Below, one piece after another: positions 5,499-25,875 of a stretch of 32,000 nucleotides of DNA. Within the stretch, counting starts at the first letter, position 1; every line of letters begins with the position of its first letter. The DNA is from Gammaproteobacteria bacterium (GTDB lineage Bacteria; Gemmatimonadota; Gemmatimonadetes; Longimicrobiales; Gaopeijiaceae): the NCBI GenBank assembly GCA_009840525.1, contig VXNP01000060.1:2683-34682 (forward strand), read 5' to 3'. The translations under genes were made by a program, and so were the position numbers. The notes under the pieces are model-generated. The model worked only from the letters and a program-made list of their open reading frames with translations, had not been told where the DNA came from and made no database searches.

Positions 5499-5613
5499 GA
5501 ACCCACATCACCGCCGGGGCCTTCCGGGACGGCCATCCAGACCTCCCGGCGTGCTTCGCTTTCCAGACGGGGCACGGCGCGAGGCGGCACTGTCGCGGAG
5601 GATCGGGGGGCGC

Positions 5614-6984
5614 ATGGCAGACTCGACGACGCAGGATCAGGGCATCGCGGCGCGCCTTCTCAACATGGAGCGTGGCGAACTGCCTCTGGCCGTCCTCTCC
5701 GCGATCTTCTTCTTCTTCGTTCTCTGCGGGTACTTCTTCCTGCGGCCGGTGCGCGAAGCCATGGGCGTCGCCCGCGGAATGGACGAACTGCGCTGGCTCT
5801 TCGTCGTCACCTCGATCATTTCCCTGGTGGCGGTGCTCGCCTTCGGCGGAGTGGTGGCGCGCATGAACCGGCGCCGTTTCATACCCGTGGCCTTCCTCTT
5901 CGTGATCGGGTGCCTGTTCGTCTTCTCGGGGCTGATCATCCAGGACGTGCGGGCCGGCGGCGGGCTCATCGGCACCGATGCCGAAACCGCCCTTGCACGC
6001 GGCGTCGGCTACACCTTCTTCGTGTGGCTGACGGTGATCAACCTCTTCACCACCAGTCTCTTCTGGGCCTTCATGGTCGACATCTTCGACGTGGACCAGG
6101 GGAAGAGGATGTTCGCCTTCATCGGCATCGGCGGCACCCTGGGCGCGCTGGCCGGGGCGGAGGCCACCAGCATCATCAGCGGGATGACGGAGTCGTCCTA
6201 CCTGCCCGCCGGGCTGATGCTGCTCGCCTGCGCCTGCTACGGCATCGCGATCGCGACGGTGCTGTGGCTGGACCGGATGGCCCTCCGGTCGCGCGCCTCC
6301 CGCCTGGAGGCGCTCCCGAAGGGTCGCCGCGACATCGCCGCGCCCGACGGCAGCACCCGGATCGGCGGCACCTTCTGGGAGGGCGCCAAGGCGGTCGTGG
6401 CCTCCCCGTACCTGCTGGGCGTCGGGCTGTGGGTGGTGTTCATGGCCATCTCCAACACCATGATCTACTTCACCCAGGCCAACATCATCCAGCAGGCCAC
6501 CGACACCTTCAGCCAGCGGGTGGAGAGCTTCGCCAACTTCGACTTCCTGGCCCAGTTCGCGACGCTCCTGACCCAGATCTTCATCACAACGCGCATCATC
6601 AAGAAGCTGGGCGTGGGCTGGACCCTCGCGATCCTGCCGCTGGTGACGGTCGCCGGGTTCGCGGTGCTGGCGGTGTGGCCCGTGTACGGGGTCATCCTGA
6701 TCTTCCAGGCGGTGCACCGGGCGACCCGTTACGCCATCTCACGGCCCTCGCGGGAGACGCTGTTCAGCGTCGTCACACCCTCCGAGAAGTACAAGGCGAA
6801 GCCCGTGGTCGACGTGTTCCTCTATCGCGCGGGGGATGCCACCGGCGCGGGGATCGACGCCACCTTTGCGGCCCTCGGCATGACGCTGGCGCTGGTGGCG
6901 GCCTCGACCGTGCCGCTTGCGGGCATCTGGATCGCGCTCTCCATCGGGATGGGGCGGGCGCAGGCCAGGCGGGTCGGGGAGTAG
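5614..6984 (+). CDS. TLC / ATP:ADP antiporter (AAA) family-like MFS transporter
   Basis: In track ORF 5551..6984 I prefer the ATG at 5614, with GGAGGA 11 nt upstream. The protein is polytopic. Its N-terminal block LSAIFFFFVLCGYFFLRPVREAMGV..LRWLFVVT..MNRRRFIP matches what I recall for COG3202/TLC-type carriers. About 12 hydrophobic segments. Confidence 0.65.
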   Translation: MADSTTQDQGIAARLLNMERGELPLAVLSAIFFFFVLCGYFFLRPVREAMGVARGMDELRWLFVVTSIISLVAVLAFGGVVARMNRRRFIPVAFLFVIGCLFVFSGLIIQDVRAGGGLIGTDAETALARGVGYTFFVWLTVINLFTTSLFWAFMVDIFDVDQGKRMFAFIGIGGTLGALAGAEATSIISGMTESSYLPAGLMLLACACYGIAIATVLWLDRMALRSRASRLEALPKGRRDIAAPDGSTRIGGTFWEGAKAVVASPYLLGVGLWVVFMAISNTMIYFTQANIIQQATDTFSQRVESFANFDFLAQFATLLTQIFITTRIIKKLGVGWTLAILPLVTVAGFAVLAVWPVYGVILIFQAVHRATRYAISRPSRETLFSVVTPSEKYKAKPVVDVFLYRAGDATGAGIDATFAALGMTLALVAASTVPLAGIWIALSIGMGRAQARRVGE

Positions 6985-10914: not shown

Positions 10915-12675
10915 ATGGCATCGCACGAAGGCGGGTCCGGGTCCACCGTTCGCTACCAGCCCGACGAGAGTCCGCCGTGGCCGCTGGCGATCGGGCTGGC
11001 GCTCCAGTACAGCATCCTGGCGCTCGGGGGCGTCGTTCTCACCGTCGCCATCGTGCTTCGGAGCGCCGAGAGCAGTGACGCGTACCTCGCCTGGGGCGCG
11101 TTCGGCGCGCTCATGGTGAGCGGCCTGACCAGCATCGTCCAGGTCATCCGGCTGGGACGCCTGGGGTCGGGATACGTCCTCATCATGGGCACTTCGGGCG
11201 CCTTCATCGCCGTCTCGGTGGCCGCGCTGGTGCAGGGGGGCCCTGCCCTGCTGACGACGCTCGTGATCGCCTCGTCGCTCTTCCAGTTCCTCCTCGCCGG
11301 GCGCCTCTCCATTCTGCGCCGCATCATCACGCCGACGGTCGCCGGGACCGTGATCATGCTGATCGCCGTCAACGTGATGCCCTTCCTGTTCGATTTTCAG
11401 GACAACGCCCCGCCCGGCGCCTCACCCTTTGCGGCGCCCGTCACCGTCCTGGCCACCCTCGCCGTAACCCTCGCAGTGATGCTCAAGTTCACCGGGCCGG
11501 TCCGCCTCTGGGGGCCGATCATCGGCATCGCGGCCGGGTGCGTGGCCGCCGCCTCGTTCGATCTGATCGATACCACCGCGCTCGCGCAGGCCGCGTGGGT
11601 GGGCGTGCCCGCTGCCGGCTGGCCGGGGCTGGGTTTCGATTTCAGCGCCGCCTTCTGGGCGATCCTCCCCGGCTACACCTTCGTCACCCTCGTGGGCGCG
11701 ATCGAAACCGTGGGCGACGCGGTGGCGATCCAGCGGGTGTCGTGGCGGGAACCGCAGGCCACGGACTACCGCGCGGTCCAGGGAGCGGTGGCCGCCGATG
11801 GCCTGGGGAACCTGCTTTCCGGACTCTTCGCAACCGTCCCCAACACCACCTACTCGAGCAGCGTCTCCATCGTCGAGATCACGGGGATCGCGGCACGGCG
11901 GGTGGGCATCTGCATCGGATTGATCTTCTGCGCACTGGCCTTCCTTCCGAAGCTGACGGCACTGCTGCTCATCATCCCCGATCCCGTGATCGGCGCCTAC
12001 GCCATGGTGATCATCGCCGTGCTGTTCGTGCTGGGGACCCGGATCGTCCTCCAGGACGGCATGGATTACCGCAAGGCCACGATCGTGGGGGTGTCGTTCT
12101 GGGTCGGGGTCGGGTGCCAGAGCGGCGAGATCTCGACGGCGGCGCTGAACCCCTTCCTGCAGCAACTGCTCGGCAACGGCATGACGGCGGGAGGGCTGAC
12201 GGCGCTCGTGCTGACGGCGTTCATGGAGCTGACCGGGCCGAGGCGCGTGCGCATGCAGACGACGCTCGATGTGCAGTCGCTGCCGAAGATCCAGGAGTTC
12301 CTGGAGAGCTTCGCCAGCCGCAAGCGCCTCGGGGCCGAGACCGGGCTCCGGCTCGGGCACGCCGCCGAGGAAACGCTGCTGCTGCTCATCGAGCAGGGCG
12401 AGGGCGAGCCGTCGGCCGGACAACGGCGCCTGAGGCTGACGGCGCGCACCGATTCGGGCGGGGTCGAGATGGAGTTTCTGGCCGCCAGCGGCGAGGGCAA
12501 CATCGAGGACCGCATGGCCGTGCTCGGCGGGCGCGCCGCCGAGGAGCCCGGGGAGCACGAGATCTCGCTGCGGCTCCTTCGCCACCTCGCGACATCGGTG
12601 CACCACCACAAGTACGAGGATGCCGACATCGTGACGGTGCGGGTGGACGCCGCTCCGGCCCGGGCCGGGGCGTAG
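10915..12675 (+). CDS. NCS2 (xanthine/uracil/nucleobase:cation symporter) family permease with ~145-aa extra cytoplasmic C-terminal domain
   Basis: In track ORF 10810..12675 I prefer the ATG at 10915, preceded by GGAGGAGG. NCS2-like blocks present: LALQYSILALGG, FVTLVGAIETVGD and ADGLGNLLSGLFATVPNTTYSSSVS. The soluble tail starts near 12235. Confidence 0.8.
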   Translation: MASHEGGSGSTVRYQPDESPPWPLAIGLALQYSILALGGVVLTVAIVLRSAESSDAYLAWGAFGALMVSGLTSIVQVIRLGRLGSGYVLIMGTSGAFIAVSVAALVQGGPALLTTLVIASSLFQFLLAGRLSILRRIITPTVAGTVIMLIAVNVMPFLFDFQDNAPPGASPFAAPVTVLATLAVTLAVMLKFTGPVRLWGPIIGIAAGCVAAASFDLIDTTALAQAAWVGVPAAGWPGLGFDFSAAFWAILPGYTFVTLVGAIETVGDAVAIQRVSWREPQATDYRAVQGAVAADGLGNLLSGLFATVPNTTYSSSVSIVEITGIAARRVGICIGLIFCALAFLPKLTALLLIIPDPVIGAYAMVIIAVLFVLGTRIVLQDGMDYRKATIVGVSFWVGVGCQSGEISTAALNPFLQQLLGNGMTAGGLTALVLTAFMELTGPRRVRMQTTLDVQSLPKIQEFLESFASRKRLGAETGLRLGHAAEETLLLLIEQGEGEPSAGQRRLRLTARTDSGGVEMEFLAASGEGNIEDRMAVLGGRAAEEPGEHEISLRLLRHLATSVHHHKYEDADIVTVRVDAAPARAGA

Positions 12676-12733
12676 CCGTCGCTTCAGGCCTTGCGCCGCC
12701 GAAGGCTCGCGCCGGACCCACGCTGGGCGAGGT

Positions 12734-13570
12734 TCAGCGCATCCTGATGGCCGCCCCCACGCCCGCAAAGAAGTCTTCGGCGGCATCGTTCAGCCCGACG
12801 CCGACCCGGACATCCCATTGCGAATCGTCGGCTGTGAGCCAGGTCAGGCCCGCGTTGAAGTAGTGTTCCTGCGGGGCATCGGCCCCCGTGGGGAAGAACG
12901 CGTACCATTCGCCGTACACGCCCCCGCGCGTCCCGACGCCGGCGCCCGCGACCGCCGACTGGGCCCACTCCGGGTAGCTGTCCTCGCCATCCGCGACGGC
13001 CAGGTTGACCTGCGTGCTGCCCGCCAGGGAGAGTCCTCCGGGCGCCTCCCAACTGTAGACGAGATTCACGCCCGGCAGCGCGCGTCCGCCGGAGAACAGC
13101 GTGCTGCCCGTGGGCAGGGTCATCTGCGGCAGGACCGCGAGCGCCGGAAGGCGACCCGTCTGCCGGGTGAGTTCGACCTTGGCCCCCAGGTAGAGGTCCT
13201 CGATCCCGCTGTCGCTGGCTCCGCTGCCCGCGGAGCTCACGCGGGTCACCGGGCTGGCCGCCACCCGGAGTTCGAGCCAGTCCGCCGCAACCCCCGCGCG
13301 CAGCAGCAGTTCGCCCAGCGTATGCGTCTGGACCGAATTGCCGTCGGACCAGTCTCCGCCGAACGTGTAACCGAACTCGATCTGGAGAACGCCCCGGCCC
13401 ACGGCGGATGCCGCTTCCGTGAAATCGGGGCGATCGGCAGTCAGGGGACGGGACGCCGGGGCAGCCGGTGCCCCCACGGGCTCCTGCGCGGACCCATTCA
13501 TCGGGCGCCCGAGCATCGTGCCGACCGCCAGGGCGGCGAGCAGAACGCCCGGAGCCGGTCGAGTCGTCAT
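12734..13570 (-). CDS. Outer-membrane beta-barrel, MetA-pathway/phenol-degradation-like transporter family
   Basis: In track ORF 12734..13672 I prefer the ATG at 13570, which gives the signal MTTRPAPGVLLAALAVGTML. Family-typical TADRPDFTEAAS motif. Alternating beta-strand pattern. Aromatic-rich C-terminal region (DFFAGVGAAIRMR). Confidence 0.6.
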   Translation of the reverse strand: MTTRPAPGVLLAALAVGTMLGRPMNGSAQEPVGAPAAPASRPLTADRPDFTEAASAVGRGVLQIEFGYTFGGDWSDGNSVQTHTLGELLLRAGVAADWLELRVAASPVTRVSSAGSGASDSGIEDLYLGAKVELTRQTGRLPALAVLPQMTLPTGSTLFSGGRALPGVNLVYSWEAPGGLSLAGSTQVNLAVADGEDSYPEWAQSAVAGAGVGTRGGVYGEWYAFFPTGADAPQEHYFNAGLTWLTADDSQWDVRVGVGLNDAAEDFFAGVGAAIRMR

Positions 13571-13822
13571 CTCCAGCAGCTCTCCCAGGTAGTTGGGACA
13601 CGAAACGTACCGGAACGCGCCCCCTCCTGGAACCAGAGGGCTGGCGGCTGGTTTGGGGGCAGTAGCCGACATGAAGCGGCGACCCCTGTTGCCGCCCCTT
13701 GCGCCGCCTGCCCATCGCTATCGCCGTCCCCCTTGCCTGAAGGCACCGTGTACCTTCACCTTGATTCGCGCCAAACAACCGTTGCGGACGACTTTAACGC
13801 CAGTGCCTCTCCAGGACCTGCC

Positions 13823-14866
13823 ATGCCTCTGCGTCGACTATCCGATGGACTGAAGGCCGCGTTCGGCGAAACGAACGTCAGCCGTCGCGTGCGGGATTTC
13901 GAAGGATGGACGGACAGAGCGTTCGGCGCGGATGGCGGCGCAGCCGACTACGACCACACCCGGACCGTAACGGAGTACTACGACCTTTGCAACGAATTGA
14001 TGGTCTTCCACTGGGGAGAATCCCTGCACTTCGCGCCGCTGTCGCCCGACGAGAGCCTGAAGGACTCAAAGATTCGGCACCAGCGGCAGATGATCGCCAA
14101 GCTGGAACTGCGTGAAGGCATGACGGTGGCCGACATCGGTTGCGGCGTCGGGGGTCCAATGCGCCGCGTCGCCCGCGAGGCCGGGGTCCGGGTATTGGGA
14201 ATCAACAGCAATGAAGTCCAACTGAGCAGGGCCAGGTCGCTGAATGCCGAGGCGGGGCTCGATCACCTGGTTGACTGCCTCGCTTGCAGCTTCATGAATA
14301 TGAGCTCCATCGCAGACGCCACCTTCGACCGGGGCTACGCGATCGAATCGACCTGCCATGCTCCCGACAAGGCGGGCGCGTTTGCCGAAATCCACCGTAT
14401 CCTCAAGCCCGGAGCCCTTTTCTGGGGCCAGGAAATGTGCATGACGGATATGTACAATCCCGACGACGATCGCCACCGGGCCATCAAGCGGGAACTGATG
14501 CACGGCATCGCGCTTCAGGACATTGCAACGTTCGGTGAGGTAGACCGGGCCCTCGAAGCCGCGGGATTCGAGGTCCTCGAGGCGACAGACCTCGCTGTCG
14601 ACGAGACCGGTCCGGCGACGCCGTGGTATCGGCCCCTGGAAACCCGGCACGGATGGCTCGGCACCGCTCTCTTCCGGACTCCCATGGGCCGCAAGGTGTT
14701 TTCCTGGGGAACCCGGCTGGCCGAGCTTCTGCGGGTGTTCCCAAAGGGATCGGCGGAGGTTGCCAAACTCATGGATCGGACTGCAGACGCCTATGTCGAC
14801 GGCGGCAGGACCGGGATCTTCACGCCGCTCTACTGCTTCCTGGCGCGCAAGCCTCTTCAGGGCTAG
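13823..14866 (+). CDS. Sterol C-24-methyltransferase (ERG6/SMT1)-type SAM-dependent methyltransferase homologue
   Basis: This is the C-terminal 347 codons of track ORF 12818..14866, from the ATG at 13823. Several blocks align by eye with yeast Erg6. YYDLCNELMVFHWGESLHFAP matches YYDL..YEYGWG.SFHF. VADIGCGVGGPMRRVA is the SAM motif I. YAIESTCHAPDKAGAFAEIHRILKPG matches YAIEATCHAP. The Sterol_MT_C-like tail is PWYRPL...GIFTPLYCFLARKP. The upstream part of the track ORF is antisense to the barrel gene. Confidence 0.85.
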   Translation: MPLRRLSDGLKAAFGETNVSRRVRDFEGWTDRAFGADGGAADYDHTRTVTEYYDLCNELMVFHWGESLHFAPLSPDESLKDSKIRHQRQMIAKLELREGMTVADIGCGVGGPMRRVAREAGVRVLGINSNEVQLSRARSLNAEAGLDHLVDCLACSFMNMSSIADATFDRGYAIESTCHAPDKAGAFAEIHRILKPGALFWGQEMCMTDMYNPDDDRHRAIKRELMHGIALQDIATFGEVDRALEAAGFEVLEATDLAVDETGPATPWYRPLETRHGWLGTALFRTPMGRKVFSWGTRLAELLRVFPKGSAEVAKLMDRTADAYVDGGRTGIFTPLYCFLARKPLQG

Positions 14867-17800
14867 GAGCCCCGGGTGGTCAAGTGCAGGCGCAGCGAGG
14901 AAAGCGCGGGCACCAGGAACATCAGGATGGCCGTGGTGAAGAGGATGCCGCACCCGATCGAGGCGGAGAAGGGGACGAAGAACTGCGCCTGAATGGCGTC
15001 TTCGAGAATCAGCGGCGTAAAGCCGAGGAAGGTGGTGAGCGAAGTCAGCATGATCGGGCGAAAACGGCCCTTGGCCCCCTCGATGATCGCCTCGCGCGCC
15101 GGAAGGCCCTCCTCAAGTTCCTGATCGATGAAGTCCATCATGACCAGGGAATCGTTCACCACCACGCCGGCCAGGCCGAATATCCCGACAAAGGACTCCG
15201 CGCTCACCGCCACTCCCAGGATCCAGTGGCCCAGGATCACGCCGACGAACCCGAACGGGATGATGGCCATGATGATGAACGGCTTGGTATAGGAACGCAG
15301 CGGAATGGCCAGCAGCGCGAAGATAATCAGCAACGCTATCGCGAAGCCGCGGTAGAGCGCACCCAGAGAGTCGATCTGCTGCTGTTGTTCGCCACCAAAG
15401 GCGTAGGTCAGGTCAGGCTCCGTATCGACCAGTCCCGCGAGGATGGTGTTCTCCAGAATGCCATTGGCTTCCCCGGCGGAAATCACACTTGCGTCTACAT
15501 CGGCAGTGACCGTGGCGACGCGTTGGCCGTCCTGGCGACGGATGGCCGGCGGCGACATGGCCGCGCTCAGTGAAGCCACGCGGCTCACCGGCACCTCGGC
15601 GCCGGTTGCCGTACGGACGAGGTAGCTCTCGATGTCGGTGATCGAGTTGCGCTGCTCCTCGGGCAGCCGGACGTAGACCCGGACTTCGTCGCGTCCCCGC
15701 TGCACCCGCAGGGCCTCCGCGCCAAAGAAGGCGGCTCTCGTCTGCCGGGCAAGCGCGTCGAGCGTGAGGCCGAGGGTTCGTGCTTCGGGCAGCAATCCCA
15801 ACTGGACTTCCGGGATGCCGGGCGTGTGGTCCGAGCGAATGTCGAAGACACCCCCCACTCGACGGAGCTCATCGACCACGGACGATGCAATCGTAACCAG
15901 GCGCTCCGGATCCGGATGGGACAGCACGGCTTCCACCGGGTTGCCCAGCGTGTAGATCTCGCTCATGAAGGTGATCCCGCGCACATGGGGCAGGATGCCC
16001 ACCTCCTCACGCCAGGCCTGCATGACTTCTCCCGACGTGATGCGCCGCTGCTGCGCCGGCAGGAGCTTGAACTCGATGGTGGCGATGTTGGCTTCGGGGT
16101 TCAGCGTGGGCGAGGGGTTGAGACCTCCGGTCTCGATCCGCGACCGCTGGCCGACGACAACCGTAACGCCGGACAGAAGCGGAGACGCATCTTCGGGCCG
16201 GCCCTCGGAAAGACGCTGGATGACCCGGTGACCGGCCGCCTCCAGTTCCCGTGCCACCGCATCCGTCTGCTGCGCGGTGGTTCCGTCCGGCATCTGAAGG
16301 GTGGCGGTTACGAAGTCCCCCTCGACCTCGGTCGCGAAGGTGGTCGGTACGATGCCGGCCGGCAGCAGGGAAACGGTGAGTATGAAGAGAGCGACGGCTG
16401 CGGAGAGCGTCACGCCGGGTCGATCGGTCGCGAACCGCATCCCGTGATCCAGGGGGCCCTGTATGAAACTGTTCAGCAGGGAGTCGACCCGACCCTGGAT
16501 GCGGCCGACGAACCGCTCCGCGCCGGTGCGGGGCGCCCAGTCCGGACCGTGCAGATGGTGCGACAGGTGGTTGGGCAGCACCAGCAGCGATTCGATCAGC
16601 GAGATCACCAGCATGGCGATGACGATGATGGGCAGCGCCTTCCAGACTTCTCCGAACCCCGCGGGAATGAAGAGCAGGGGAACGAACGCAACGATGGTGG
16701 TGAGCACCGCGAAGATCAGCGGCACCTTGATCCGCCGCGCACCGCGGATGGCGGCGACAGTGCCCGGCGTCCCTCGCATTCGTTCCAGATGAATATGTTC
16801 GGCGACGACGATCGCATCGTCCACGATGATTCCGATGGCGAGTACGAACGAGAAGAGCGAGACAGCGTGGATCGGGATGTCGAACACCATCATGGCGGCC
16901 AGGGCGCCGATCCCCGCAACGCCAAGGCCGACGGCTACCCAGAAGGCCAGCCGGACTTCCAGAAACAGGCCCAGCGCGATCAACACCAGCAGCAGCCCCA
17001 GAGCCCCGTTCTTGAGGAGGAGGGCGCCACGCTCCGAGAACGCCGTGGAATCGTCGTTCCAGATGGTCACGCCCACGCCGCCGGGGAGTGAAGGCACCAC
17101 CTCGTTCGCCACATGCTCCTTGACGGCACGGGCCACGCTCATGACCCTTTCGCCCTCCGCCCGGGATACCTCGACGAAGACGGCGGGCCGGCCCTGATGC
17201 CGCACGATCAGATCGGAGTCCTGGAAACCGTCGCGCACCTCGGCGACGTCACCCAGACGCACGACCGTGCCGTCGTCCCGGCTGAGGAGAACGATTTCCT
17301 CGAAATCCTGTTGGTCGTAGCTCTGGCCAAGTGTGCGCACCCGCACCTGGGACTCCCGGGTATCGATGCTCCCCGCGGACAGGTCCAGTGAGTTACTGCG
17401 AATCGTGTTCGCGATGTCGGTCAGGGTCAGGCCGAGAGCCCTGAGACGCTGCAGCGGCACCTCGATCGAAACCTCGTAGTTGCGCACTCCGCTGGTCACG
17501 ACCTGGGAGACGGAGGGAAGCGCAGCGAGTTCGTCTTCGATCCGGTACGCGAGTTCCTTCAGCGAGCGCTCGGGAACGTCGCCGTAGACGATCAGCCGAA
17601 TCATGCTCTGGGCGTTGGTCATCTCGCGTATCTGGGGCCGCTCGGCTCCGCCCGGAAACGTCTGAATACGCCCGACCGCCGACTCGATCTCGTCCTTCTT
17701 GGCGCCCATGTCCGTGCCGGAGTTGACTTCAACCCTGACGGACGCCATCCCCGGGGCGGCTATGGACCTGACCGCCTTCACATCGGCGAGTCCCCTGACC

Positions 17801-18042
17801 TGGTCCTCGATCTTGACGACGATGGCCTCTTCAACCTCCTCGGGGGTTGCGCCGGGGAAGGGCACGGAGATCTCGAACTGGTTGAAGGGTACCTCGGGCC
17901 ATCCCTCCTGCTCGAGACCGGTCAGCGACACCAGGCCCGCTGCGATGATCCCGAGCATCAGCAGATTGGCGGCGACGCTGTTGCTCGCCATATAGGCAAT
18001 GGGGCCGCCCGGTTCGCCGTGGTTGTCTGGGTTCCGACTCAT
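14863..18042 (-). CDS. RND-superfamily inner-membrane permease (AcrB/HAE-like), no cognate adaptor or outer-membrane factor adjacent
   Basis: Track ORF, 1059 aa. The N-terminus PIAYMASNSVAANLLMLGIIAAGL is typical of RND permeases. It has 12 TM segments in a 1+large loop+5 repeat architecture. Conserved TM4 region: AIGIIVDDAIVVAEHI. Its stop overlaps the methyltransferase stop in the palindrome CTAG (14863-14866). Confidence 0.9.
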   Translation of the reverse strand: MSRNPDNHGEPGGPIAYMASNSVAANLLMLGIIAAGLVSLTGLEQEGWPEVPFNQFEISVPFPGATPEEVEEAIVVKIEDQVRGLADVKAVRSIAAPGMASVRVEVNSGTDMGAKKDEIESAVGRIQTFPGGAERPQIREMTNAQSMIRLIVYGDVPERSLKELAYRIEDELAALPSVSQVVTSGVRNYEVSIEVPLQRLRALGLTLTDIANTIRSNSLDLSAGSIDTRESQVRVRTLGQSYDQQDFEEIVLLSRDDGTVVRLGDVAEVRDGFQDSDLIVRHQGRPAVFVEVSRAEGERVMSVARAVKEHVANEVVPSLPGGVGVTIWNDDSTAFSERGALLLKNGALGLLLVLIALGLFLEVRLAFWVAVGLGVAGIGALAAMMVFDIPIHAVSLFSFVLAIGIIVDDAIVVAEHIHLERMRGTPGTVAAIRGARRIKVPLIFAVLTTIVAFVPLLFIPAGFGEVWKALPIIVIAMLVISLIESLLVLPNHLSHHLHGPDWAPRTGAERFVGRIQGRVDSLLNSFIQGPLDHGMRFATDRPGVTLSAAVALFILTVSLLPAGIVPTTFATEVEGDFVTATLQMPDGTTAQQTDAVARELEAAGHRVIQRLSEGRPEDASPLLSGVTVVVGQRSRIETGGLNPSPTLNPEANIATIEFKLLPAQQRRITSGEVMQAWREEVGILPHVRGITFMSEIYTLGNPVEAVLSHPDPERLVTIASSVVDELRRVGGVFDIRSDHTPGIPEVQLGLLPEARTLGLTLDALARQTRAAFFGAEALRVQRGRDEVRVYVRLPEEQRNSITDIESYLVRTATGAEVPVSRVASLSAAMSPPAIRRQDGQRVATVTADVDASVISAGEANGILENTILAGLVDTEPDLTYAFGGEQQQQIDSLGALYRGFAIALLIIFALLAIPLRSYTKPFIIMAIIPFGFVGVILGHWILGVAVSAESFVGIFGLAGVVVNDSLVMMDFIDQELEEGLPAREAIIEGAKGRFRPIMLTSLTTFLGFTPLILEDAIQAQFFVPFSASIGCGILFTTAILMFLVPALSSLRLHLTTRGS

Positions 18043-18230
18043 TTGTGCTGGATCGGCCTGGGTGTGGACGAGGGACGCGCACGGACAGGATACTCATTGG
18101 GTACTCGCCGTGCACCGTCAAGGCACCCCGCGGTGCCCGCGATACCGCCGGCGAACGCGATCCGGGGATCGGCCCTCGAAGAACCGTCCGGTGTTGCGTC
18201 ACAACGACGCTTTCTCGCGACAGATTCCGT

Positions 18231-18260
18231 TTGACGCAGCCGTGCCCGTGGAGCTATGCT
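18231..18260 (+). promoter_or_regulatory. Candidate sigma70-like promoter upstream of the P450 gene
   Basis: TTGACG (18231-18236), an 18-nt spacer, then TATGCT (18255-18260). It lies in a locally AT-richer patch of the 377-bp divergent intergenic region between the RND and P450 genes. Confidence 0.3.
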
Positions 18261-18419: not shown

Positions 18420-20447
18420 ATGGCCGTTGCGACAGAGAATGTCTCCACCCAGGCGCTGACGCTGCCCGAGGAGCTCATCCTGATGCTCCTCAACGAGGAA
18501 AACGGCTACTTCCACCAGGTACCCGGCTGGCGGCTGCATTGCGCCGTCATCGGCGCGGTGCTCGCGGAACTCTCGCTCCTGACGCGCATCGACACGGACA
18601 TGGAGTCGCTGTTCCTGGTGGACGCGACGGAAACGGGCGACCCCGCACTGGACCCCATTCTGGAGGAAATCGCAGGCGAGCAAGTTCAACGGAACGCCCA
18701 GTACTGGATCGAGCGCCTCGCGCACCGTGCCGAATCGATCATCGATCTGACGCTGGACCGGCTGGTTGAACTCAAGATCCTGGAACATCACGACGGCGAG
18801 TTCTGGACCTTGGCTCGCAGGGTCTGGCAGACGGAACTGTACGGCGGCACCGAGGAAGGCACCGCGCGCCAGTTCATCAGGACGCGCATCGGCAAGGTCA
18901 TCTTCACCGAGGAGATCCCCGACCCGAGAGACATCATCATCATCTGCCTGGTGAACTCGTGTGATGTCTTTCGTTTCATATTCCAACTGGACGACGAGGC
19001 CCACGAGCGCATCGAGCTCATCTGCAAGATGGACCTGATCGGCCGCTCGATCGCGGCCGCGGTGGTGACCAACCTCGGTGGCCCGGTGGTTCAACGGTCC
19101 CGCCTCGCGAAGCAGATTCCGCGTGCCTCGCTGCGCAAGTTGCTGTCGAACCCTCACCTGCGTAGTGGCAACCTGCCCGCGCTCGTCGCGGATCTGGCCA
19201 GGGAGTACGGCCCGGTGTTCGAGCTCCGGCCGCCGTTCTCGCAACCCATGGTCTTCCTTGCCGGACCACGGGCAAACCGCGGGGTGAATCGGCACGGGCG
19301 CAGATATCTGAGAGCCAGGGACTATTTCGCCGACTTCGAGCAAGTCTATGGTGCGTCCGGAGTCCTGCCCTCCCTGGATGGCGCAGACCACTTCCGGCTT
19401 CGCAGGGCCATGGCGCCAGGCGTCTCGCGCGCGAGGCTGGCGGGACAGGGAGACCTGTTGTTTCGTCAGGCCCGTGCATACATGGCGGATTGGGCGGTGG
19501 GTGACACCTACCCGGCAAGACGCCTTTGCCGACGCATGATCAACAGCCAGATCTCTCCTCTCATGTTGAGCGTGGATTCGCAGGATATCATCGACGATCT
19601 GATCGTGTTCAAGGAACGCGCACTCAACGTCCACATCCTGAACGGCCTTCCCAAGTTCATGCTGAAGACCCCGGGAATGAAGCGCCGGGCGCAGGCCGTG
19701 GAGACGTTGCTGGAACGGGTCTACAGCGTCCATACTCCCGCCCAGCGGGCCGGCTGCCCGCGCAGCCTTGCCGATGACTGGCTGAGCCTGCACGCGAGCG
19801 ATCCACAGTTCGTACCGGAGTCGAATCTGCGGTTCGCCCTGTCGGCCGCGCTGGTTGCCAGCGTGTATCTCGGGGATGGATTCAACTGCGCGCTCTATGC
19901 CATGGCGTCACAGCCAGAGCTCTATGCCAGAATCCGGGATGAGGCCGGTGTGTTCTTCCAAAACGGGGAACCGGATGGCGACGACCTCAACCTTTCCGCG
20001 ATGGACGTCACCCGCCGTTTCATCAAGGAATGCCTGCGGCTGTACCCGATCGTCCCGATGTCCATGCGGAACGTGATGAACACCTGGGTGGTCGAGAACT
20101 ACGAGATACCGATTGGAACGCGGGTCGCCATCGCCCAGACAGCCTCGCATTTCATGGAGGATGTTTTCCCGGACCCCTTCACCTTCGATATCGACCGCTA
20201 CAAGGATCCCCGCAATGAGCACCGCAGCCCGGGGTACGCTCCCTATGGCCTGGGCACACACAGGTGCCTCGGCTCCCGGTGGATGGAGTTGCAACTGGGC
20301 GTCAACCTCCTTCTGGTCGCGCACTACTTCACGATCGAGGTGTCCCCGGCGAACTACAAGTTCCGATTCAGCCCCTTTCCGTCGATGAAGCCGAGCAAGG
20401 ACCTCAAGTTCCGCATCGCAGAGCAGGTGCGCGAGCTGCCGTCCTGA
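18420..20447 (+). CDS. Fusion protein: N-terminal GPP34/GOLPH3-family domain + C-terminal cytochrome P450
   Basis: Track ORF, 675 aa. Residues ~10-225 follow the GPP34 pattern: LTLPEELILMLLNEENGYF, GAVLAELSLLTRI, TGDPALDPILEEI, DPRDIIIICLVNSCDV. The C-terminal ~430 aa is a P450. It has the K-helix ExxR (KECLRLYP), a PERF-like FDIDRY, and the haem loop YAPYGLGTHRCLGSRW (Cys codon at 20265). Confidence 0.85.
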   Translation: MAVATENVSTQALTLPEELILMLLNEENGYFHQVPGWRLHCAVIGAVLAELSLLTRIDTDMESLFLVDATETGDPALDPILEEIAGEQVQRNAQYWIERLAHRAESIIDLTLDRLVELKILEHHDGEFWTLARRVWQTELYGGTEEGTARQFIRTRIGKVIFTEEIPDPRDIIIICLVNSCDVFRFIFQLDDEAHERIELICKMDLIGRSIAAAVVTNLGGPVVQRSRLAKQIPRASLRKLLSNPHLRSGNLPALVADLAREYGPVFELRPPFSQPMVFLAGPRANRGVNRHGRRYLRARDYFADFEQVYGASGVLPSLDGADHFRLRRAMAPGVSRARLAGQGDLLFRQARAYMADWAVGDTYPARRLCRRMINSQISPLMLSVDSQDIIDDLIVFKERALNVHILNGLPKFMLKTPGMKRRAQAVETLLERVYSVHTPAQRAGCPRSLADDWLSLHASDPQFVPESNLRFALSAALVASVYLGDGFNCALYAMASQPELYARIRDEAGVFFQNGEPDGDDLNLSAMDVTRRFIKECLRLYPIVPMSMRNVMNTWVVENYEIPIGTRVAIAQTASHFMEDVFPDPFTFDIDRYKDPRNEHRSPGYAPYGLGTHRCLGSRWMELQLGVNLLLVAHYFTIEVSPANYKFRFSPFPSMKPSKDLKFRIAEQVRELPS

Positions 20448-20452
20448 CCGCG

Positions 20453-21490
20453 TTGGGTGATGCGGGCGGGCGGCGGGCATCGACCTCCGTCCACAGCCAC
20501 GGCCTCCCGCCCCTCCTCCGAAGCATCCCCGTCATTGCGGCGCTGGCCGCCTGCGGCGGTGACTCCGGTACCGAGCCGCCCGGGGAGCCGCCACGCGCCC
20601 CCGCCGCCATTGTGGTCGTGTCGGGGGGCGGGCAGGAGGGGATGGCGGGCAGCCCGCTCGCCGAGCCCGTGGTGGTGCGGGTGGACGACGCGGGCGGCTC
20701 GCCGTTCGCGGGCGTCACCGTGACCTTCTCCGCCGCCGCCGGGCACGGATCCGCCGACCCGGCCACCGCGGCCACCGACGCGGCCGGCCTGGCCCGCACG
20801 ACCTGGACGCTCGGCGATGCGGCCGGCGCCCAGACCCTCACGGCGTCGGTGGCCGGGGGAGTGTCGACCGACATCCGTGCGGCCGCGGGAGAGCTTCCCT
20901 CCCCGCCCGACTCCGCCGTCTACAGCGTCGTCTTCAACGCCACCTGGAGCGCCGCCACCCACCCGACCGACTACCCGGGCGGCGCGCACTTCTCGCCGCT
21001 CATCGGCGCGGTGCACGACGACGGCGTCCGCTTCTGGGCGAGCGGCGAGACGGCCACCCCCGGCATCGAGAGCATGGCCGAGACGGGAGGGACCAGCACG
21101 CTCAGGTCGGAAATCCGCGCGCACCTCCCGGCCGCCGTCCTCTCCGTCATCAGCGGACCCGGCCTCGGCACCAGCCCCGCCAGCGCGACCGTCTCCCGCG
21201 TCGTCGTCCGGGGGGACTACCCCCTCGTCACCCTGGTCACCATGATCGCGCCGAGCCCCGACTGGTTCGTGGGCGTTTCCGCGCTGTCGCTGATGGACGA
21301 CCTGGGGCTGTGGGTGGACGAACTCCAGGTCACCCTCTATCCCTACGACTCGGGCACCGACGACGGAACCACCTGCACCTCCGCCAACGCCGACTCCTCG
21401 CCCAGGCAGCCCATCCGCAGCCTCCGCGGCATGACCCCGTTCTCGGACGCGCCCATCGGAACGTTCACGTTCACGCGAGTCGGGGGCTAG
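20453..21490 (+). CDS. Lipoprotein with Ig-like (Big-type) domain + Spondin_N domain
   Basis: Same frame as track ORF 20264..21490, but that ORF start overlaps the P450 3' end. The first in-frame start after the P450 stop is the TTG at 20453, so the start is tentative. Lipobox: IPVIAALAAC-GGDSG. Ig-like unit: IVVVSGGGQEGMAGSPLAEPVVVRVDDAGGSPFAGVTVTF. Spondin_N blocks: YSVVFNATWSAATHP, HFSPLIGAVHD, IAPSPDWFVGVS, LYPYDSGTDDG. Confidence 0.8.
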   Translation: MGDAGGRRASTSVHSHGLPPLLRSIPVIAALAACGGDSGTEPPGEPPRAPAAIVVVSGGGQEGMAGSPLAEPVVVRVDDAGGSPFAGVTVTFSAAAGHGSADPATAATDAAGLARTTWTLGDAAGAQTLTASVAGGVSTDIRAAAGELPSPPDSAVYSVVFNATWSAATHPTDYPGGAHFSPLIGAVHDDGVRFWASGETATPGIESMAETGGTSTLRSEIRAHLPAAVLSVISGPGLGTSPASATVSRVVVRGDYPLVTLVTMIAPSPDWFVGVSALSLMDDLGLWVDELQVTLYPYDSGTDDGTTCTSANADSSPRQPIRSLRGMTPFSDAPIGTFTFTRVGG

Positions 21491-21523: not shown

Positions 21524-22735
21524 CTACCAGTCCGACGAGTGCTCGTCGTGCAGCGCGGTCGGCAACCGGTACGAGTACCTCAGCTTCTCGAAGCCGGCGA
21601 ACTCCATGAGGGTGTCGAACCGGGCGCGATCCTGCTTCGCCCCCAAGCGGGGAAGCACCTTGCGGATGACGCCCCGGGACCGGTTCTGAATCCGCATCCA
21701 GGGGATCACCTTCCGCCTGCGGGTGGGAAACAGGAATGAATCGGCGAGCTTCTCGCCGATCAGCTCCCGTGACGCCTGGGTCACGACGCGGGCCATTTTC
21801 CGGCGCTCTGCGGGGTCCGTGACACCGATGATGACGGGCGCGCTGTTCACGATGCTGTTGGCCATGATGATGGCGTCCAGGTCCGCGGGAGGTTCGCACA
21901 TGGAGCCGATCTCGAACGCCCGGCAAGCCGAGGCTTCGTCGTCGAAGATGAGATCCTCCGGGATGCCCATCAGCAGCCCCGTGTAGCGCCAGACGTGGAT
22001 GTAGGCCTCCCGCTCCTCCGTGCTGAAGTCGCCCCCCAGCGTGGCCACGTGCCGCATCAGCCGGCCCGAGAAGGCCGCCCCGGCCAGGAGCACGTGCGCG
22101 GCGCTGATCGGCTCTCCCAGCCGGTCGTGATCCCATTCATCGGACTGGTTGATCAGGTATCGGGACTGAGCGTGCACCAGCCGGACGCGCAGGGTGAGCC
22201 TCCATCCGTCCCCCCCGGGTTCCATTCCACCCGGCAGGTACTGCTCGACAAGCTGCATCCCGTTCTGCTTGAGGCGCCGCACACCCGAGTTGGTGACCCG
22301 TCCCCGGATCCGGAACGACTTGCTGATCAGGGTGGAGAACCCCTCGACGATGCTGCCGCCCACCAGGGCCGCGAGAACGATGTCCGAGTTTCGCAGAAAG
22401 GCGCGCGAGGCCATGCGGGCGATGTCGGCATCGAACCAGTCCGGCACGGCGGTCGAGTACTCCACGAACTCGACGAGGGAATCGGGGGCGCCCGTCTGCG
22501 GTGCGTGGGGATTGTCCAGTGCCTGCGCCAGCGTCTGGTGCAGTTCCCCGGGATCCAGGTCCGAAAGATCCCGAACGACGGCATCCGCCAGCGGATCGCC
22601 GATCATCGTGTTGCGGACGTAGGCCTCCGCGAGCTCCGGATCGTGCTGGCGGGCGGCCTCGTATCCCGCGACGTAGGCACCGGGTACTTCCAAACCCTCT
22701 CCCGAACCGGCTCGCAGCGGCGGCTGGCGGATCAT
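21524..22735 (-). CDS. MpaB / Lcp (rubber-oxygenase catalytic domain, ex-DUF2236) family oxygenase
   Basis: Track ORF, 403 aa. Family-like blocks: GDPLADAVV near the N-terminus, VPDWFD, RLTLRVRLVHA, and HVWRYTGLLMGIPE. It is the last cistron of the minus-strand Rieske operon, with a 25-nt gap after the P450-tail ORF. Confidence 0.7.
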   Translation of the reverse strand: MIRQPPLRAGSGEGLEVPGAYVAGYEAARQHDPELAEAYVRNTMIGDPLADAVVRDLSDLDPGELHQTLAQALDNPHAPQTGAPDSLVEFVEYSTAVPDWFDADIARMASRAFLRNSDIVLAALVGGSIVEGFSTLISKSFRIRGRVTNSGVRRLKQNGMQLVEQYLPGGMEPGGDGWRLTLRVRLVHAQSRYLINQSDEWDHDRLGEPISAAHVLLAGAAFSGRLMRHVATLGGDFSTEEREAYIHVWRYTGLLMGIPEDLIFDDEASACRAFEIGSMCEPPADLDAIIMANSIVNSAPVIIGVTDPAERRKMARVVTQASRELIGEKLADSFLFPTRRRKVIPWMRIQNRSRGVIRKVLPRLGAKQDRARFDTLMEFAGFEKLRYSYRLPTALHDEHSSDW

Positions 22736-22760: not shown

Positions 22761-22928
22761 TCAGACCGGCACCTCGCAGACCCTCCCGGCGATGCGGAAC
22801 TCCGGCTTCCGGCTCGGCTTCATCGACGGGAAGGGGCTGACACGGTGCTCGTAGTTCTTCGGCGCCACCTCGAGCGTAAAGTGATGCGCCATCATCAGTA
22901 CGTTCACCATGAGCTTCAGTTCCATCAT
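22761..22928 (-). pseudogene. Relic of a second cytochrome P450 (C-terminal 54 residues only), preserved as a 55-codon ORF translationally coupled to the Rieske gene
   Basis: It encodes MMELKLMVNVLMMAHHFTLEVAPKNYEHRVSPFPSMKPSRKPEFRIAGRVCEVPV. This aligns without gaps to the last 54 aa of the P450 at 18420..20447 (MELQLGVNLLLVAHYFTIEVSPANYKFRFSPFPSMKPSKDLKFRIAEQVRELPS). By hand alignment 33 of 54 residues are identical. No haem-Cys loop lies upstream. Its first ATG (22926-22928) overlaps the Rieske TGA (22925-22927) as ATGA. Confidence 0.75.
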
Positions 22929-24055
22929 GTCCCGTTCCCCTCCGGCAGATGCCCGGATCCGATTCGATCCGCCCACGCGCGGCGCAGCTCACGATCCGAA
23001 GCTGGACCGGCGGTCTTACTCATACCTATGTCGGAGTAGAACTGACGGCAATACAGCCGGTACTTGCCGATGGGCCCGTCGGCCCGGCAGAGACGCGGCG
23101 GGGACTGGTAGCGCTTCCGCTCCCAGATCACCACGTCCTGCGCCACGAACCGCCGCTCCTCGTAGATCAGGATGCGGTTCATCAGCCTGTTGCGGAGCTT
23201 CTTCGGCAGGAACCCCAGCCCGGCGATGTAGCGCCCGGGCCTGGCGACTTCGCGCGCCTGGCTGACCAGCGTCAACTCGACGAACTCGCCGTCGACCGGA
23301 GTCGAGAGGACCCACAGCCTGGAATCCATGCCGATCGTCTTCTCGTGAACCTCGACGAACGAGTAGCCCAGCCCATGGACGTGGGTGACGGCCGAGACCT
23401 CGGATACGATGTCGATCAGCCCCGCGACGGTGCGGACGTTCGTGAACTCGAAGCAGCTCTTCAGGTAGGCGCCGTCGATGGAAAAGGCTGTCGGTTCCAC
23501 ATCCCGGTAGCCGTGCGTGTACTCCAGATGCTCCACGTCCACGGAGTTCTCGGTCGTCTCCTGGGGATGGCCACGGAAGCGCATGGTGGTGGAACGCAGC
23601 CCGCTCCAGTCCGCGCCCGTGGGGGGCTCCTCCGGCAGATCCCACTGCGGCGCCCGCCCACCGGCGCCATACCAGGCGAAGACCATGCCCAGGATCTCCC
23701 GGGTCTCGTAGAGCTTGAGCTTCGCGGCCCTGGGGGCCGGGGCGTTGGGCGTGGCGACGCACTGGCCGGTGGCATCGAAGGTGAAGCCGTGGAAGGGACA
23801 CACCAGGCAGCCGTCCCGGATGGTGCCGCCGGCCGTCGGCCCCAGGTGCGAGCCCAGGTGGGGGCAGAACGCGTCCGCCACGCAGACGCGGCCGTCGTCG
23901 TCGCACCAGGCGACGATCTGCTCGCCCATCCAGGTCTTCTCGATGAGCTTTTCCGTCAGCAGGGTGTCGCGCGTCGCGATGAAGTACCACCCCTCCGGGA
24001 ACGGAGGCAGTCGATCGACGCGGCGCGGGATCCGCCCGTTGGCTTTCGGGATCAT
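22925..24055 (-). CDS. Rieske [2Fe-2S] non-haem-iron oxygenase (KshA / Neverland / SdmA-like class)
   Basis: Track ORF, 376 aa. Rieske ligands: CPHLGSHL...CPFHGF. Mononuclear-iron motif: ENSVDVEHLEYTH (D-x2-H-x4-H). The C-terminal block QDVVIWERKRY..P.L..ADGPIGKYRLYCRQFY resembles what I recall from Neverland-type steroid desaturases. Confidence 0.85.
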   Translation of the reverse strand: MIPKANGRIPRRVDRLPPFPEGWYFIATRDTLLTEKLIEKTWMGEQIVAWCDDDGRVCVADAFCPHLGSHLGPTAGGTIRDGCLVCPFHGFTFDATGQCVATPNAPAPRAAKLKLYETREILGMVFAWYGAGGRAPQWDLPEEPPTGADWSGLRSTTMRFRGHPQETTENSVDVEHLEYTHGYRDVEPTAFSIDGAYLKSCFEFTNVRTVAGLIDIVSEVSAVTHVHGLGYSFVEVHEKTIGMDSRLWVLSTPVDGEFVELTLVSQAREVARPGRYIAGLGFLPKKLRNRLMNRILIYEERRFVAQDVVIWERKRYQSPPRLCRADGPIGKYRLYCRQFYSDIGMSKTAGPASDRELRRAWADRIGSGHLPEGNGT

Positions 24056-24089: not shown

Positions 24090-24189
24090 TACGGACTCTG
24101 CAAATGTCGCGCCGAGGGCGAGGTTTGGCAAATGCGTGTGCGACAAAACGACGAAAATCTGCGACGATTTTGTGTAGAGGCACGGCGTT
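24090..24189 (-). promoter_or_regulatory. Candidate promoter/operator region upstream of the Rieske operon
   Basis: On the minus strand, TTGACC (plus 24184-24189), a 17-nt spacer, then TACACA (plus 24161-24166). Downstream is an AT-rich segment with the inverted repeat AAAATC-tgcgac-GATTTT (24143-24160). GCGAC occurs twice. The direct repeat GCAAATG occurs at 24090-24096 and 24118-24124. Confidence 0.3.
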
Positions 24190-24195
24190 CGGGGG

Positions 24196-25248: not shown

Positions 25249-25280
25249 TGCGTTTGGTGCTCCTGTCAAAGGGTGAGTGT

Positions 25281-25634
25281 CTACCAGTCTCCGTCCCGCA
25301 CGACCCGCACGACCCGGAAGATCGCTTCGTCCGGCGCCTCCCGGAGTTGCCGGATCAAATCCGCGAAGAGCTTCGGTCTCTTTCGGATGATCTCCTGCAG
25401 ATCGCTCGAAACCTTTCCCGCCATCGCCAGGAAGACGTCCGGATCCTGACCCAGCTCGCGGGCGAGCCGCACCGTGGTGGCCTCCGAGGGCGGCGCAACC
25501 ACGCCGCGCTCGATCTTGCTCAGGTAGGCCGGCTCCACCCCCACGCGCCGAGCGACCTGGCGCAGGGAAAAACGTCGATCGCTCTCACGGAGTCGTTCGC
25601 GGATCTGTCTTGCCGTCGTACCGAATTGGGGCAT
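25281..25634 (-). CDS. XRE-family helix-turn-helix transcriptional regulator
   Basis: Track ORF 25281..25745. HTH: RFSLRQVARRVGVEPAYLSKIERG. I prefer the ATG at 25634 because the candidate -10 sits at 25667-25672, which excludes the ATG at 25664 and anything upstream of it. The C-terminal helical extension is ~60 aa. Confidence 0.8.
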   Translation of the reverse strand: MPQFGTTARQIRERLRESDRRFSLRQVARRVGVEPAYLSKIERGVVAPPSEATTVRLARELGQDPDVFLAMAGKVSSDLQEIIRKRPKLFADLIRQLREAPDEAIFRVVRVVRDGDW

Positions 25635-25666
25635 CGCAAGTCGGAGGTGTGAGTAGTGTGTCATAC

Positions 25667-25700
25667 ATAGTACACGCTCATAGGTGGTTCGGCAACCACC
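25667..25700 (-). promoter_or_regulatory. Candidate promoter of the XRE gene with a perfect palindrome over the -35
   Basis: On the minus strand, TTGCCG (plus 25690-25695), a 17-nt spacer, then TACTAT (plus 25667-25672). A perfect inverted repeat GGTGGTT-cggc-AACCACC (25683-25700) is centred on the -35 hexamer. The surrounding patch is locally AT-rich. Confidence 0.4.
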
Positions 25701-25875
25701 CAGCGGGTTGAGTGCGAACCCGAACGACAGCTGGCGCTGTCTCAACGCTCGCGAAGATGGGCCGGATCACCCGCGGAGATGTTGCCTGAACGTCACGCCG
25801 AACTCACCGTGGATGTTCAGCCGCTACGCTTGTGGAAGCGGCTGGCGAGACCGGCTTGACCGCACGAGGTGATCC

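Follow-up and report, generated by a model that had tools for sequence, protein, structure and literature searches.

A divergent sterol methyltransferase paralogue within a gene module of sponge-symbiotic bacteria, with a possible role in sterol tailoring

Introduction

Bacterial sterol methyltransferases (SMTs) bear on the reading of side-chain-alkylated steranes as animal or algal biomarkers, and a gene located at positions 13823-14866 of the forward strand of a 32,000-nucleotide stretch of contig VXNP01000060.1 (assembly GCA_009840525.1; the whole stretch is hereafter the window) raises the question of what such an enzyme does in its bacterial host. A prior sequence-only reading described the product as an ERG6/SMT1-type SMT. 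The analysis reported here places the protein in a side branch of the family, altered and widespread, and identifies the gene context, a module specific to sponge symbionts, as the feature of principal interest.

Results

The encoded protein belongs to the SMT family

Translation of 13823-14866 (+) yielded an unbroken 347-amino-acid protein with the N-terminus MPLRRLSDGLKAAF, closed by a stop codon and containing every string quoted in the sequence-only reading, namely VFHWGESLHFAP, ADIGCGVGGP, YAIESTCHAP, PWYRPL and FTPLYCFLARKP; both the open reading frame (ORF) and its motifs are thus real. The GC content by codon position (0.65, 0.47 and 0.77) followed a coding-type pattern, and the ATG at 13823 agreed with the start of full-length homologues (MQLRRLS...). 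A stop-to-stop ORF running from 12818 was rejected as a high-GC artefact, its upstream part having a non-coding GC pattern, and a scan for promoters and terminators around the gene found none.

Pfam searches recognised several class-I methyltransferase domains plus Sterol_MT_C (PF08498) at residues 283-344, the latter with 61.8 bits against a cut-off of 21.7 (E 6.5e-17), and a full-length BLASTP alignment to Saccharomyces cerevisiae ERG6 gave 34% identity over 348 residues (E 1e-64). The ERG6 reference sequence used here has the expected amino acid at each of the 34 positions that the literature cites by number. These values pass the limits of E <= 1e-50 and at least 30% identity to ERG6 by which Brown et al. 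2023 (PMC10070321) recognised SMT homologues. The Region II S-adenosylmethionine (SAM) motif, 125-DxGxGxxGP-133 in ERG6, was present as D104-I-G-C-G-V-G-G-P112, and Region III, described in the literature as confined to SMTs, was intact as YAIESTCHAP (YAIEATCHAP in ERG6), with E175 aligning with E195. With its methyltransferase domain, Sterol_MT_C tail, both of these regions and the published homology limits all in agreement, the gene is an SMT-family methyltransferase homologue, as had been claimed.

The sequence-only reading had been prepared to abandon that assignment should the best homologues prove to be tocopherol, phospholipid or mycolate methyltransferases, an outcome that did not arise, such matches falling far below their family cut-offs. 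The Pfam CMAS domain did match with 60 bits, close to the score of Sterol_MT_C, but the NCBIfam models of the cyclopropane/mycolate (CMAS) type returned only 34-48 bits against cut-offs of 390-650. The nearest named matches in NCBIfam and the Protein Data Bank (PDB) were non-SMT methyltransferases, all far under their family cut-offs, and they head these lists because genuine SMT models or structures were returned from neither collection; the one PDB chain named as an SMT, 6f5z, was a weak match (E 4e-07). A PDB fold search with a predicted model of moderate quality (pLDDT 80), poor in the Region I loop, recovered only the general class-I fold of olefin and natural-product methyltransferases, no SMT structure being in the PDB; among the nearest were enzymes that C-methylate olefins in terpenes and fatty acids, namely TleD, the geranyl and farnesyl diphosphate (GPP and FPP) methyltransferases and cyclopropane fatty acid (CFA) synthase.

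Region I and phylogeny define a separate clade

Region I, the third block on which the sequence-only reading had relied, is present but departs from the canonical form, reading MVFHWGESLHF where ERG6 has 81-YEYGWGSSFHF-91; inspection of the Region I residues, as had been recommended, revealed M in place of Y81, H in place of G84 and L in place of F89. Residues M60, F62, H63, L68 and I229 of the window SMT correspond to yeast positions 81, 83, 84, 89 and 249, and ERG6 numbering is used below unless stated otherwise. The SAM-binding residues D125, G127, G129 and P133 are retained, as are H90, E195, G217 and most of the conserved C-terminal residues. Relative to the 25 residues conserved across every functional SMT (Brown and Welander 2025 preprint), the window SMT holds 21, the deviations being T78N, G84H, F89L and L341M. 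The Region I consensus of 84-GWGxxFHF-91 with Y74 and T78 is accordingly broken by H84, L89 and N78.

These departures recur across related loci, in which Region I reads ...EFMVFGWGESLHF, L89 is found throughout and position 78 is occupied by S, G or N. In an alignment of 46 clade sequences of 70-100% identity, M60, L68 and I229 were invariant. Histidine at position 84 (H63), by contrast with the glycine of other clade members, is particular to the sub-lineage of the window; it was also present in four further 90%-identity clusters, 91-93% identical and all full length with intact ORFs, and its occurrence in several such clusters indicates that it is fixed in a sub-lineage. The Region I changes are therefore lineage features rather than errors. 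All SMTs assayed, whether or not they proved functional, are reported to keep glycine at position 84 (Brown and Welander 2025 preprint). As regards the residues associated with propylating SMTs, the glycine at 249 that is reported to be necessary for 24-isopropyl formation is replaced by I229, invariant in the clade, and the phenylalanine expected at position 81 and/or 83 is supplied by F62 at 83, position 81 being methionine; phenylalanine at these positions is reported not to be sufficient alone.

A neighbour-joining (NJ) tree of 121 sequences gave the core clade a bootstrap of 100, and grouped it with three other L89 sequences (P0122, P0124 and P0125) in a superclade, likewise with a bootstrap of 100, apart from all canonical YYGWG..FHF sequences, ERG6 included. 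Among 1.84 billion representatives of 50%-identity clusters, only four were more than 50% identical to the window SMT, and the next values dropped to 41-45%. The tree contradicts placement with ERG6 and the other canonical SMTs, and the label 'ERG6/SMT1-type' has to be withdrawn for a protein that belongs to a separate clade and misses 4 of the 25 functional residues. The clade is a paralogue distinct from the canonical C-24 SMTs.

The clade SMT is linked to a GPP34-P450 fusion and a Rieske oxygenase

The gene located at 18420-20447 (+), 3.6 kb downstream of the window SMT, encodes a 675-amino-acid fusion of a GPP34 domain (residues 15-215) to a cytochrome P450 domain (p450, 489-645), as recognised by Pfam. 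This is exactly the architecture of GPP34_L, reported to be exclusive to sponge symbionts and proposed to be a secreted effector that binds phosphatidylinositol 4-phosphate (PI4P) and blocks phagosome maturation, so acting against phagocytosis (Microbiome 2025, PMC11706023). A Rieske [2Fe-2S] plus KshA_C oxygenase gene, KshA-like by Pfam, lies 8.1 kb downstream of the SMT at 22925-24055 (-). For present purposes a sponge-symbiont GPP34_L module was defined as a GPP34-P450 fusion and a Rieske/KshA_C oxygenase gene at no more than 10 kb from a clade SMT, a definition that includes the window.

Linkage was assessed in those species-level loci, 69 in all, that extend 5 kb or more to either side, genes being counted within 10 kb of the clade SMT. 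The GPP34-P450 fusion was found in 52 loci, mostly directly adjoining the SMT, and the Rieske/KshA_C gene in 55; an LkcE-like amine-oxidase flavoprotein was present in 34, an RND or MMPL transporter in at least 22, and a second, canonical SMT in five. The reverse test, starting from the fusion protein in 25 well-flanked GPP34_L loci of sponge metagenomes, recovered the clade SMT in 14 and at least one module gene in 24. Some of the MMPL transporters had matches to Patched or sterol-sensing models, and identification of the MMPL partner as HpnN was rejected at 104 bits against a cut-off of 752. No work tying the GPP34-P450 fusion to SMTs or sterols was found in the literature searched: sterols and methyltransferases are never mentioned in PMC11706023, nor GPP34 and the P450 in the SMT papers.

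Several side observations concern individual loci. The P450 fusion was absent from the loci of Dadabacteria and Thermodesulfobacteriota, and in the 12140-13821 (+) region of two Dadabacteria loci (L004 and L005) the SMT stands beside a Rieske oxygenase, an MMPL transporter, an FA_hydroxylase of the ERG3/ERG25 family and a protein resembling 3-beta-hydroxysteroid dehydrogenases/epimerases, which scored best on OleD-type reductase models. A canonical SMT with all 25 conserved residues was encoded a few kb from the clade SMT at 17223-18251 (-) of locus L006, and also in L026, L046, L067, L072 and L126; the L006 copy has glycine at 249, the residue reported to be necessary for 24-isopropyl formation.

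Sterol genes adjoin the clade SMT in two lineages

In two loci from Aplysina aerophoba metagenomes (L126 and L089), the proteins of which are annotated in NCBI as Nitrospira sp., the gene order was GPP34_L, clade SMT, a KshA_C fragment, canonical SMT, a fusion of squalene epoxidase and oxidosqualene cyclase (SE-OSC), a full P450, ERG4/ERG24 and an SdmA-like gene. In a locus from Binatia (L072), the clade SMT shares a run with genes for SdmB-like (301 bits) and SdmA-like (408 bits) proteins, a canonical SMT and a pair of GPP34_L fusions, and OSC, CYP51 and ERG24 are encoded nearby. In the window, the P450 domain of the fusion had CYP51s as its nearest solved relatives and aligned over its full length to Methylococcus capsulatus CYP51 at 84 bits with low identity, and the Rieske protein had the steroid hydroxylase KshA (4qdc, 79 bits) as its best PDB match.

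The L126 locus further permits a connection to published assays. Exact 7-mers, taken from published codon-optimised DNA that was machine-read with errors, covered 299 of 343 residues of its canonical SMT, which is the propylating enzyme 'A. aerophoba JGIcombinedJ30088_10000835 1 of 2' of Brown et al.; the N-terminus and the context of the G225D primer matched as well. The published cluster lists an SMT with 35.16% identity to ERG6 as gene 9, an SMT with 42.36% as gene 11, and SMO/OSC, ERG11, ERG24, sdmA and sdmB as genes 12-16 (Brown et al. 2023, PMC10070321). The gene numbers fit L126 exactly, and the clade and canonical SMTs of this locus showed 34.9% and 42.0% identity to ERG6. Gene 9 is called '2 of 2' in Supplementary Table 4 of the same paper, and the clade SMT of L126 can be equated with it because both gene order and the identity of the canonical neighbour match. 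A member of the clade would then already have been assayed. No functional SMT is reported to lack T78 or F89, and of the 11 inactive SMTs 7 deviate at conserved positions (Brown and Welander 2025 preprint).

The clade is widespread among sponge symbionts and has probably been exchanged between phyla

Contrary to the sequence-only view that bacterial SMT homologues are rare, 2450 proteins matched the window SMT at E <= 1e-10, 589 stretches encoded a relative when each prokaryotic species was represented by a single genome, and 7966 homologues have been reported in IMG (Brown et al. 2023, PMC10070321). Details of relatives refer to the best 80 of these 589 stretches, at 69-91% identity. All 80 were from metagenome-assembled genomes (MAGs), and every origin traceable by name was sponge-derived; the taxonomic labels among them comprised Gemmatimonadota, Gamma- and Alphaproteobacteria, Dehalococcoidia/SAR202, Dadabacteria, Rhodothermales, Acidobacteriota, Binatia, Acidimicrobiales, Nitrospinota and Thermodesulfobacteriota. 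Enrichment of SMT1/ERG6 has been reported in MAGs of the sponge Ircinia (Kelly et al. 2022, PMC9531527). Between phyla the clade SMTs share 70-75% identity, which implies horizontal exchange.

A protein identical to the window SMT was present on two ENA contigs. The window was syntenic, at 94-96% nucleotide identity, with the Gammaproteobacteria-labelled MAGs SB0661_bin_31, SB0675_bin_31 and RHO1_bin_70, the SB06xx bins being symbionts of Ircinia ramosa. By way of contrast, a block comprising the SMT and the adjoining RND gene (13830-18072) was 92-93% identical by blastn to Gemmatimonadota-labelled MAGs with which neighbouring genes shared only 77-80%, and had a GC content of 0.64 compared with 0.68-0.71 upstream. 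Horizontal transfer of the block is probable, the mismatch between block and flanks reflecting either a recent cross-phylum transfer or a binning error in one set of MAGs.

The clade SMT is under purifying selection

Compared with its syntenic relatives, the window SMT exhibited a rate of nonsynonymous substitution (dN) of 0.066-0.074, five to eight times that of neighbouring genes, a synonymous rate (dS) of 0.16-0.18 (neighbours about 0.07-0.14), and dN/dS ratios of 0.38-0.43 (neighbours 0.05-0.39). Overall, dN/dS was 0.22-0.43, which demonstrates purifying selection. Twelve substitutions, including G63H in window numbering, were unique to the window SMT, compared with one or two in relatives, and the protein was approximately 90% identical to some Gemmatimonadota-labelled copies compared with 86-87% to its own syntenic relatives. 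This divergence fits allele replacement or faster evolution. Interpretation of the gene as a pseudogene was rejected given the intact ORF, a dN/dS below 0.45 and the fixation of H63 in several lineages.

Other features of the window

The SMT gene and an AcrB-family RND permease gene at 14863-18042 (-; ACR_tran 516.7 bits, Pfam) are convergent, with stop codons overlapping by 4 bp, and this convergent pair recurs in Gemmatimonadota loci. The permease has no adjacent adaptor gene, and is considered divergent because its score on NCBIfam RND_permease_2, 405 bits, falls under the cut-off of 1250. On the other side, a Phenol_MetA_deg-family outer-membrane protein gene (12734-13570, -) is divergently oriented relative to the SMT, its conservation being limited to the closest relatives. 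Immediately ahead of the likely start of that protein, and in its reading frame, a peptide at 13571-13636 (-), FRYVSCPNYLGELLE, gave a weak match to Steroid_dh, a motif of the steroid 5-alpha-reductase family, with 21.4 bits, just short of the cut-off of 22.6; it could be a chance resemblance or what is left of a gene at the border of the transferred block.

The P450 fusion is separated from the Rieske gene by genes for a Big_1 plus Spondin_N protein, the latter a eukaryote-like domain (20453-21490, +), and for a protein with an MpaB/Lcp-type oxygenase domain (21524-22735, -), both restricted to this lineage and its nearest relatives. They are followed by a 55-amino-acid ORF at 22761-22928 (-; MMELKLMVNVLMMAHHFTLEV...SPFPSMKPS...) that overlaps the stop of the Rieske gene by 4 bp and matches the C-terminal consensus of the fusion proteins. 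Judged from its sequence, this C-terminal piece of a GPP34_L-type P450 is probably all that remains of another GPP34_L gene next to the Rieske gene; the KshA_C fragment of L126, at 13192-13530, is an analogous case. Further downstream, a segment of approximately 1.6 kb (24171-25747), which L018 and L014 as the nearest syntenic relatives lack, encodes a 350-amino-acid hypothetical protein at 24196-25269 (-) with no Pfam or NCBIfam match; a search for inverted repeats around this insertion found none. A membrane protein gene at 5551-6984 (+) gave a weak match to the TLC ATP/ADP transporters (34.6 bits, cut-off 21), a family typical of host-dependent bacteria.

Discussion

Proposed function of the paralogue and its module

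The explanation favoured here, to which roughly even chances are assigned, is that the clade SMT is a sterol-tailoring paralogue operating within a mobile module specific to sponge symbionts, together with the GPP34-P450, the KshA-like oxygenase and a lipid transporter. It would be a SAM-dependent olefin C-methyltransferase that has split off from the canonical C-24 SMTs with a remodelled sterol side-chain pocket, in which M81, L89 and I249 would be the clade-invariant elements and H84 an addition of the window's sub-lineage. The chemistry would presumably be that of the SMT family, namely transfer of the SAM methyl group to a side-chain double bond via a carbocation, followed by deprotonation; the window SMT keeps all of the SAM-binding residues as well as H90 and E195. 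The GPP34-P450, the KshA-like Rieske oxygenase, often the LkcE-like flavoprotein and the RND or MMPL transporter might then jointly tailor and move sterols, whether made by the bacterium or obtained from the sponge host. The substrate would probably not be desmosterol or 24-methylenecholesterol, and more likely some other sterol intermediate, possibly one modified first by the neighbouring oxygenases. How many methyl groups are transferred and to which position cannot be read from the sequence, a caution of the sequence-only reading that stands.

A number of results weigh against this explanation. Sterol_MT_C alone is no proof of a sterol substrate, and no product is known from any member of the clade; the one equated here with '2 of 2' appears to have been assayed and to be inactive on desmosterol and 24-methylenecholesterol, although inactive SMTs may, according to the authors of the SMT work, require other substrates. 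The P450 of the fusion is no CYP51 orthologue, with 26% identity over 163 residues to a true CYP51 and no AGxxT I-helix motif, and the Rieske protein is not SdmA (NCBIfam SdmA 34 bits against a cut-off of 600; 24% identity to a real SdmA-like protein). Neither tblastn nor Pfam found OSC, CYP51, ERG24 or SdmA/B in the 32-kb window, de novo sterol genes adjoin the clade SMT in just 3 of 157 loci, and 9 of the 69 loci examined for linkage have no module gene nearby. Given that most loci have no adjacent de novo sterol genes, most carriers would have to use sterols from a distant locus or from the host.

Alternative explanations

The simplest alternative is that the enzyme is an ordinary C-24 SMT that converts a delta-24 sterol once to a 24-methyl or 24-methylene sterol, the Region I changes being neutral. 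Full-length homology to ERG6 and the 21 retained functional residues are in its favour, as is mutagenesis: a G249I mutant of a Chlamydiae SMT still gave C28 sterols, making I249 compatible with single methylation, and leucine in place of Region I aromatics in soybean SMT1 removed the second methylation only. Against this stand the separation of the clade as its own lineage with full bootstrap support, the histidine in the window at a position where every tested SMT keeps glycine, the apparent inactivity of the assayed member on desmosterol, and the presence of a clade copy beside a canonical SMT in one and the same cluster (L006, L072 and L126), which argues for a different role; an ordinary SMT is considered unlikely. 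Rather less credence is given to methylation of a non-sterol olefin, such as a phospholipid acyl chain or an acyclic or hopanoid triterpene, with the amine-oxidase-like flavoprotein reducing the exomethylene product. A comparable pairing of a methyltransferase with a flavin reductase produces 10-methyl fatty acids, and the near-equal CMAS and Sterol_MT_C scores, the loss of two Region I aromatics (Y81 to M and F89 to L), a flavoprotein in 34 of the 69 loci, the diversity of lipids carried by MMPL transporters and the inclusion of TleD, GPP and FPP methyltransferases and CFA synthase among the nearest folds would all be compatible with it, as would the fact that GPP34 is a phosphoinositide-binding domain in eukaryotes (PMC11706023). 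However, canonical SMTs match CMAS too (56 bits for that of L072), the NCBIfam cyclopropane/mycolate models give no more than 48 bits where 390-650 are required, Region III is intact, and the clade adjoins OSC, CYP51, ERG24 and SdmA/B in two lineages.

The least probable of the alternatives, and one to which little weight is attached, is a decaying or non-catalytic paralogue, perhaps binding sterol or SAM, that is kept by its linkage to the transporter, the window copy with G84H being the furthest along. The dN five to eight times that of neighbouring genes, the raised dN/dS relative to them, the twelve window-unique substitutions compared with one or two in relatives, and the apparent inactivity of the assayed clade member could be so understood. 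Nevertheless dN/dS is well under 1, the ORF is intact at the standard length of the family with all SAM-binding and catalytic residues in place, H63 occurs in at least five diverged clusters, the signature residues are invariant across phyla, and the raised dS fits recombinational allele replacement equally well as relaxed selection.

Relationship to known systems

The canonical C-24 SMTs (ERG6, plant SMT1 and SMT2, and the bacterial SMTs of PMC10070321) share with the window SMT the fold and domain pair, DxGxGxxGP, YAIE(A/S)TCHAP, H90, E195 and most C-terminal residues. They differ from the clade in Region I, Y-E-Y-G-W-G-x-x-F-H-F as opposed to M-V-F-G/H-W-G-E-S-L-H-F, and in the clade's I249 and its lack of T78, F89 and L341, to which the window SMT adds the loss of G84. 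A further known counterpart is '2 of 2' of A. aerophoba (Brown et al. 2023), the L126 equivalent of which is 69.6% identical to the window SMT, reads MVYGWGESLHF, has I249 and likewise adjoins a GPP34-P450 gene. However, that gene stands directly beside a full de novo sterol cluster of a Nitrospira sp. symbiont, whereas the window copy, with H84, stands beside an AcrB-type RND pump with no sterol biosynthesis genes within 32 kb.

With respect to GPP34_L, all related loci of traceable origin agree with the published confinement to sponge symbionts, and the present data depart from that account (PMC11706023) by linking the fusion genomically with an SMT paralogue, with a KshA-like oxygenase and, in two of the lineages, with genes of sterol biosynthesis. 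The ERG24-CYP51-LSS clusters of Ircinia symbionts (Kelly et al. 2022, PMC9531527) share the habitat and phyla of the module, are sometimes flanked by SMT1/ERG6 and are reported to have been transferred horizontally among symbionts; the window module has none of ERG24, CYP51 and LSS, and GPP34-P450, the KshA-like Rieske protein and RND/MMPL transporters are not mentioned in that study.

Implications for sponge symbionts and for sterane biomarkers

A more adventurous version, for which the chances are rated as slim, is that the clade represents an unconventional side-chain methyltransferase of sponge holobionts, for example the hypothetical 26-SMT, which would convert codisterol-type delta-25(27) sterols to aplysterol or 26-methyl skeletons. 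Such 26-SMTs are so far undiscovered, and their presumed precursor is made by both sponge and bacterial SMTs (Brown et al.). The clade member equated with '2 of 2' would have been tested on two substrates only, and the pocket residues of the clade have been altered and then strictly conserved. Were this version true, the GPP34-P450 would be a sterol-modifying enzyme instead of, or besides, a phagosome effector, and part of the side-chain features that serve as Neoproterozoic 'sponge' biomarkers would be the work of bacterial symbionts rather than of the sponge.

As a genomic marker of sponge symbiosis the GPP34-P450 fusion ranks among the strongest reported, and its coupling to an SMT paralogue, a steroid-hydroxylase-like Rieske oxygenase, lipid transporters and sometimes sterol genes suggests, as an alternative to the effector role, sterol modification or handling; movement of the module between phyla fits a function selected by life within sponges. 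For the SMT family, the commonest homologue in sponge symbionts is a distinct paralogue without residues shared by all working enzymes, and counts of 'SMT genes' in these symbionts therefore conceal a separate enzyme and overstate their proven capacity for C-24 alkylation.

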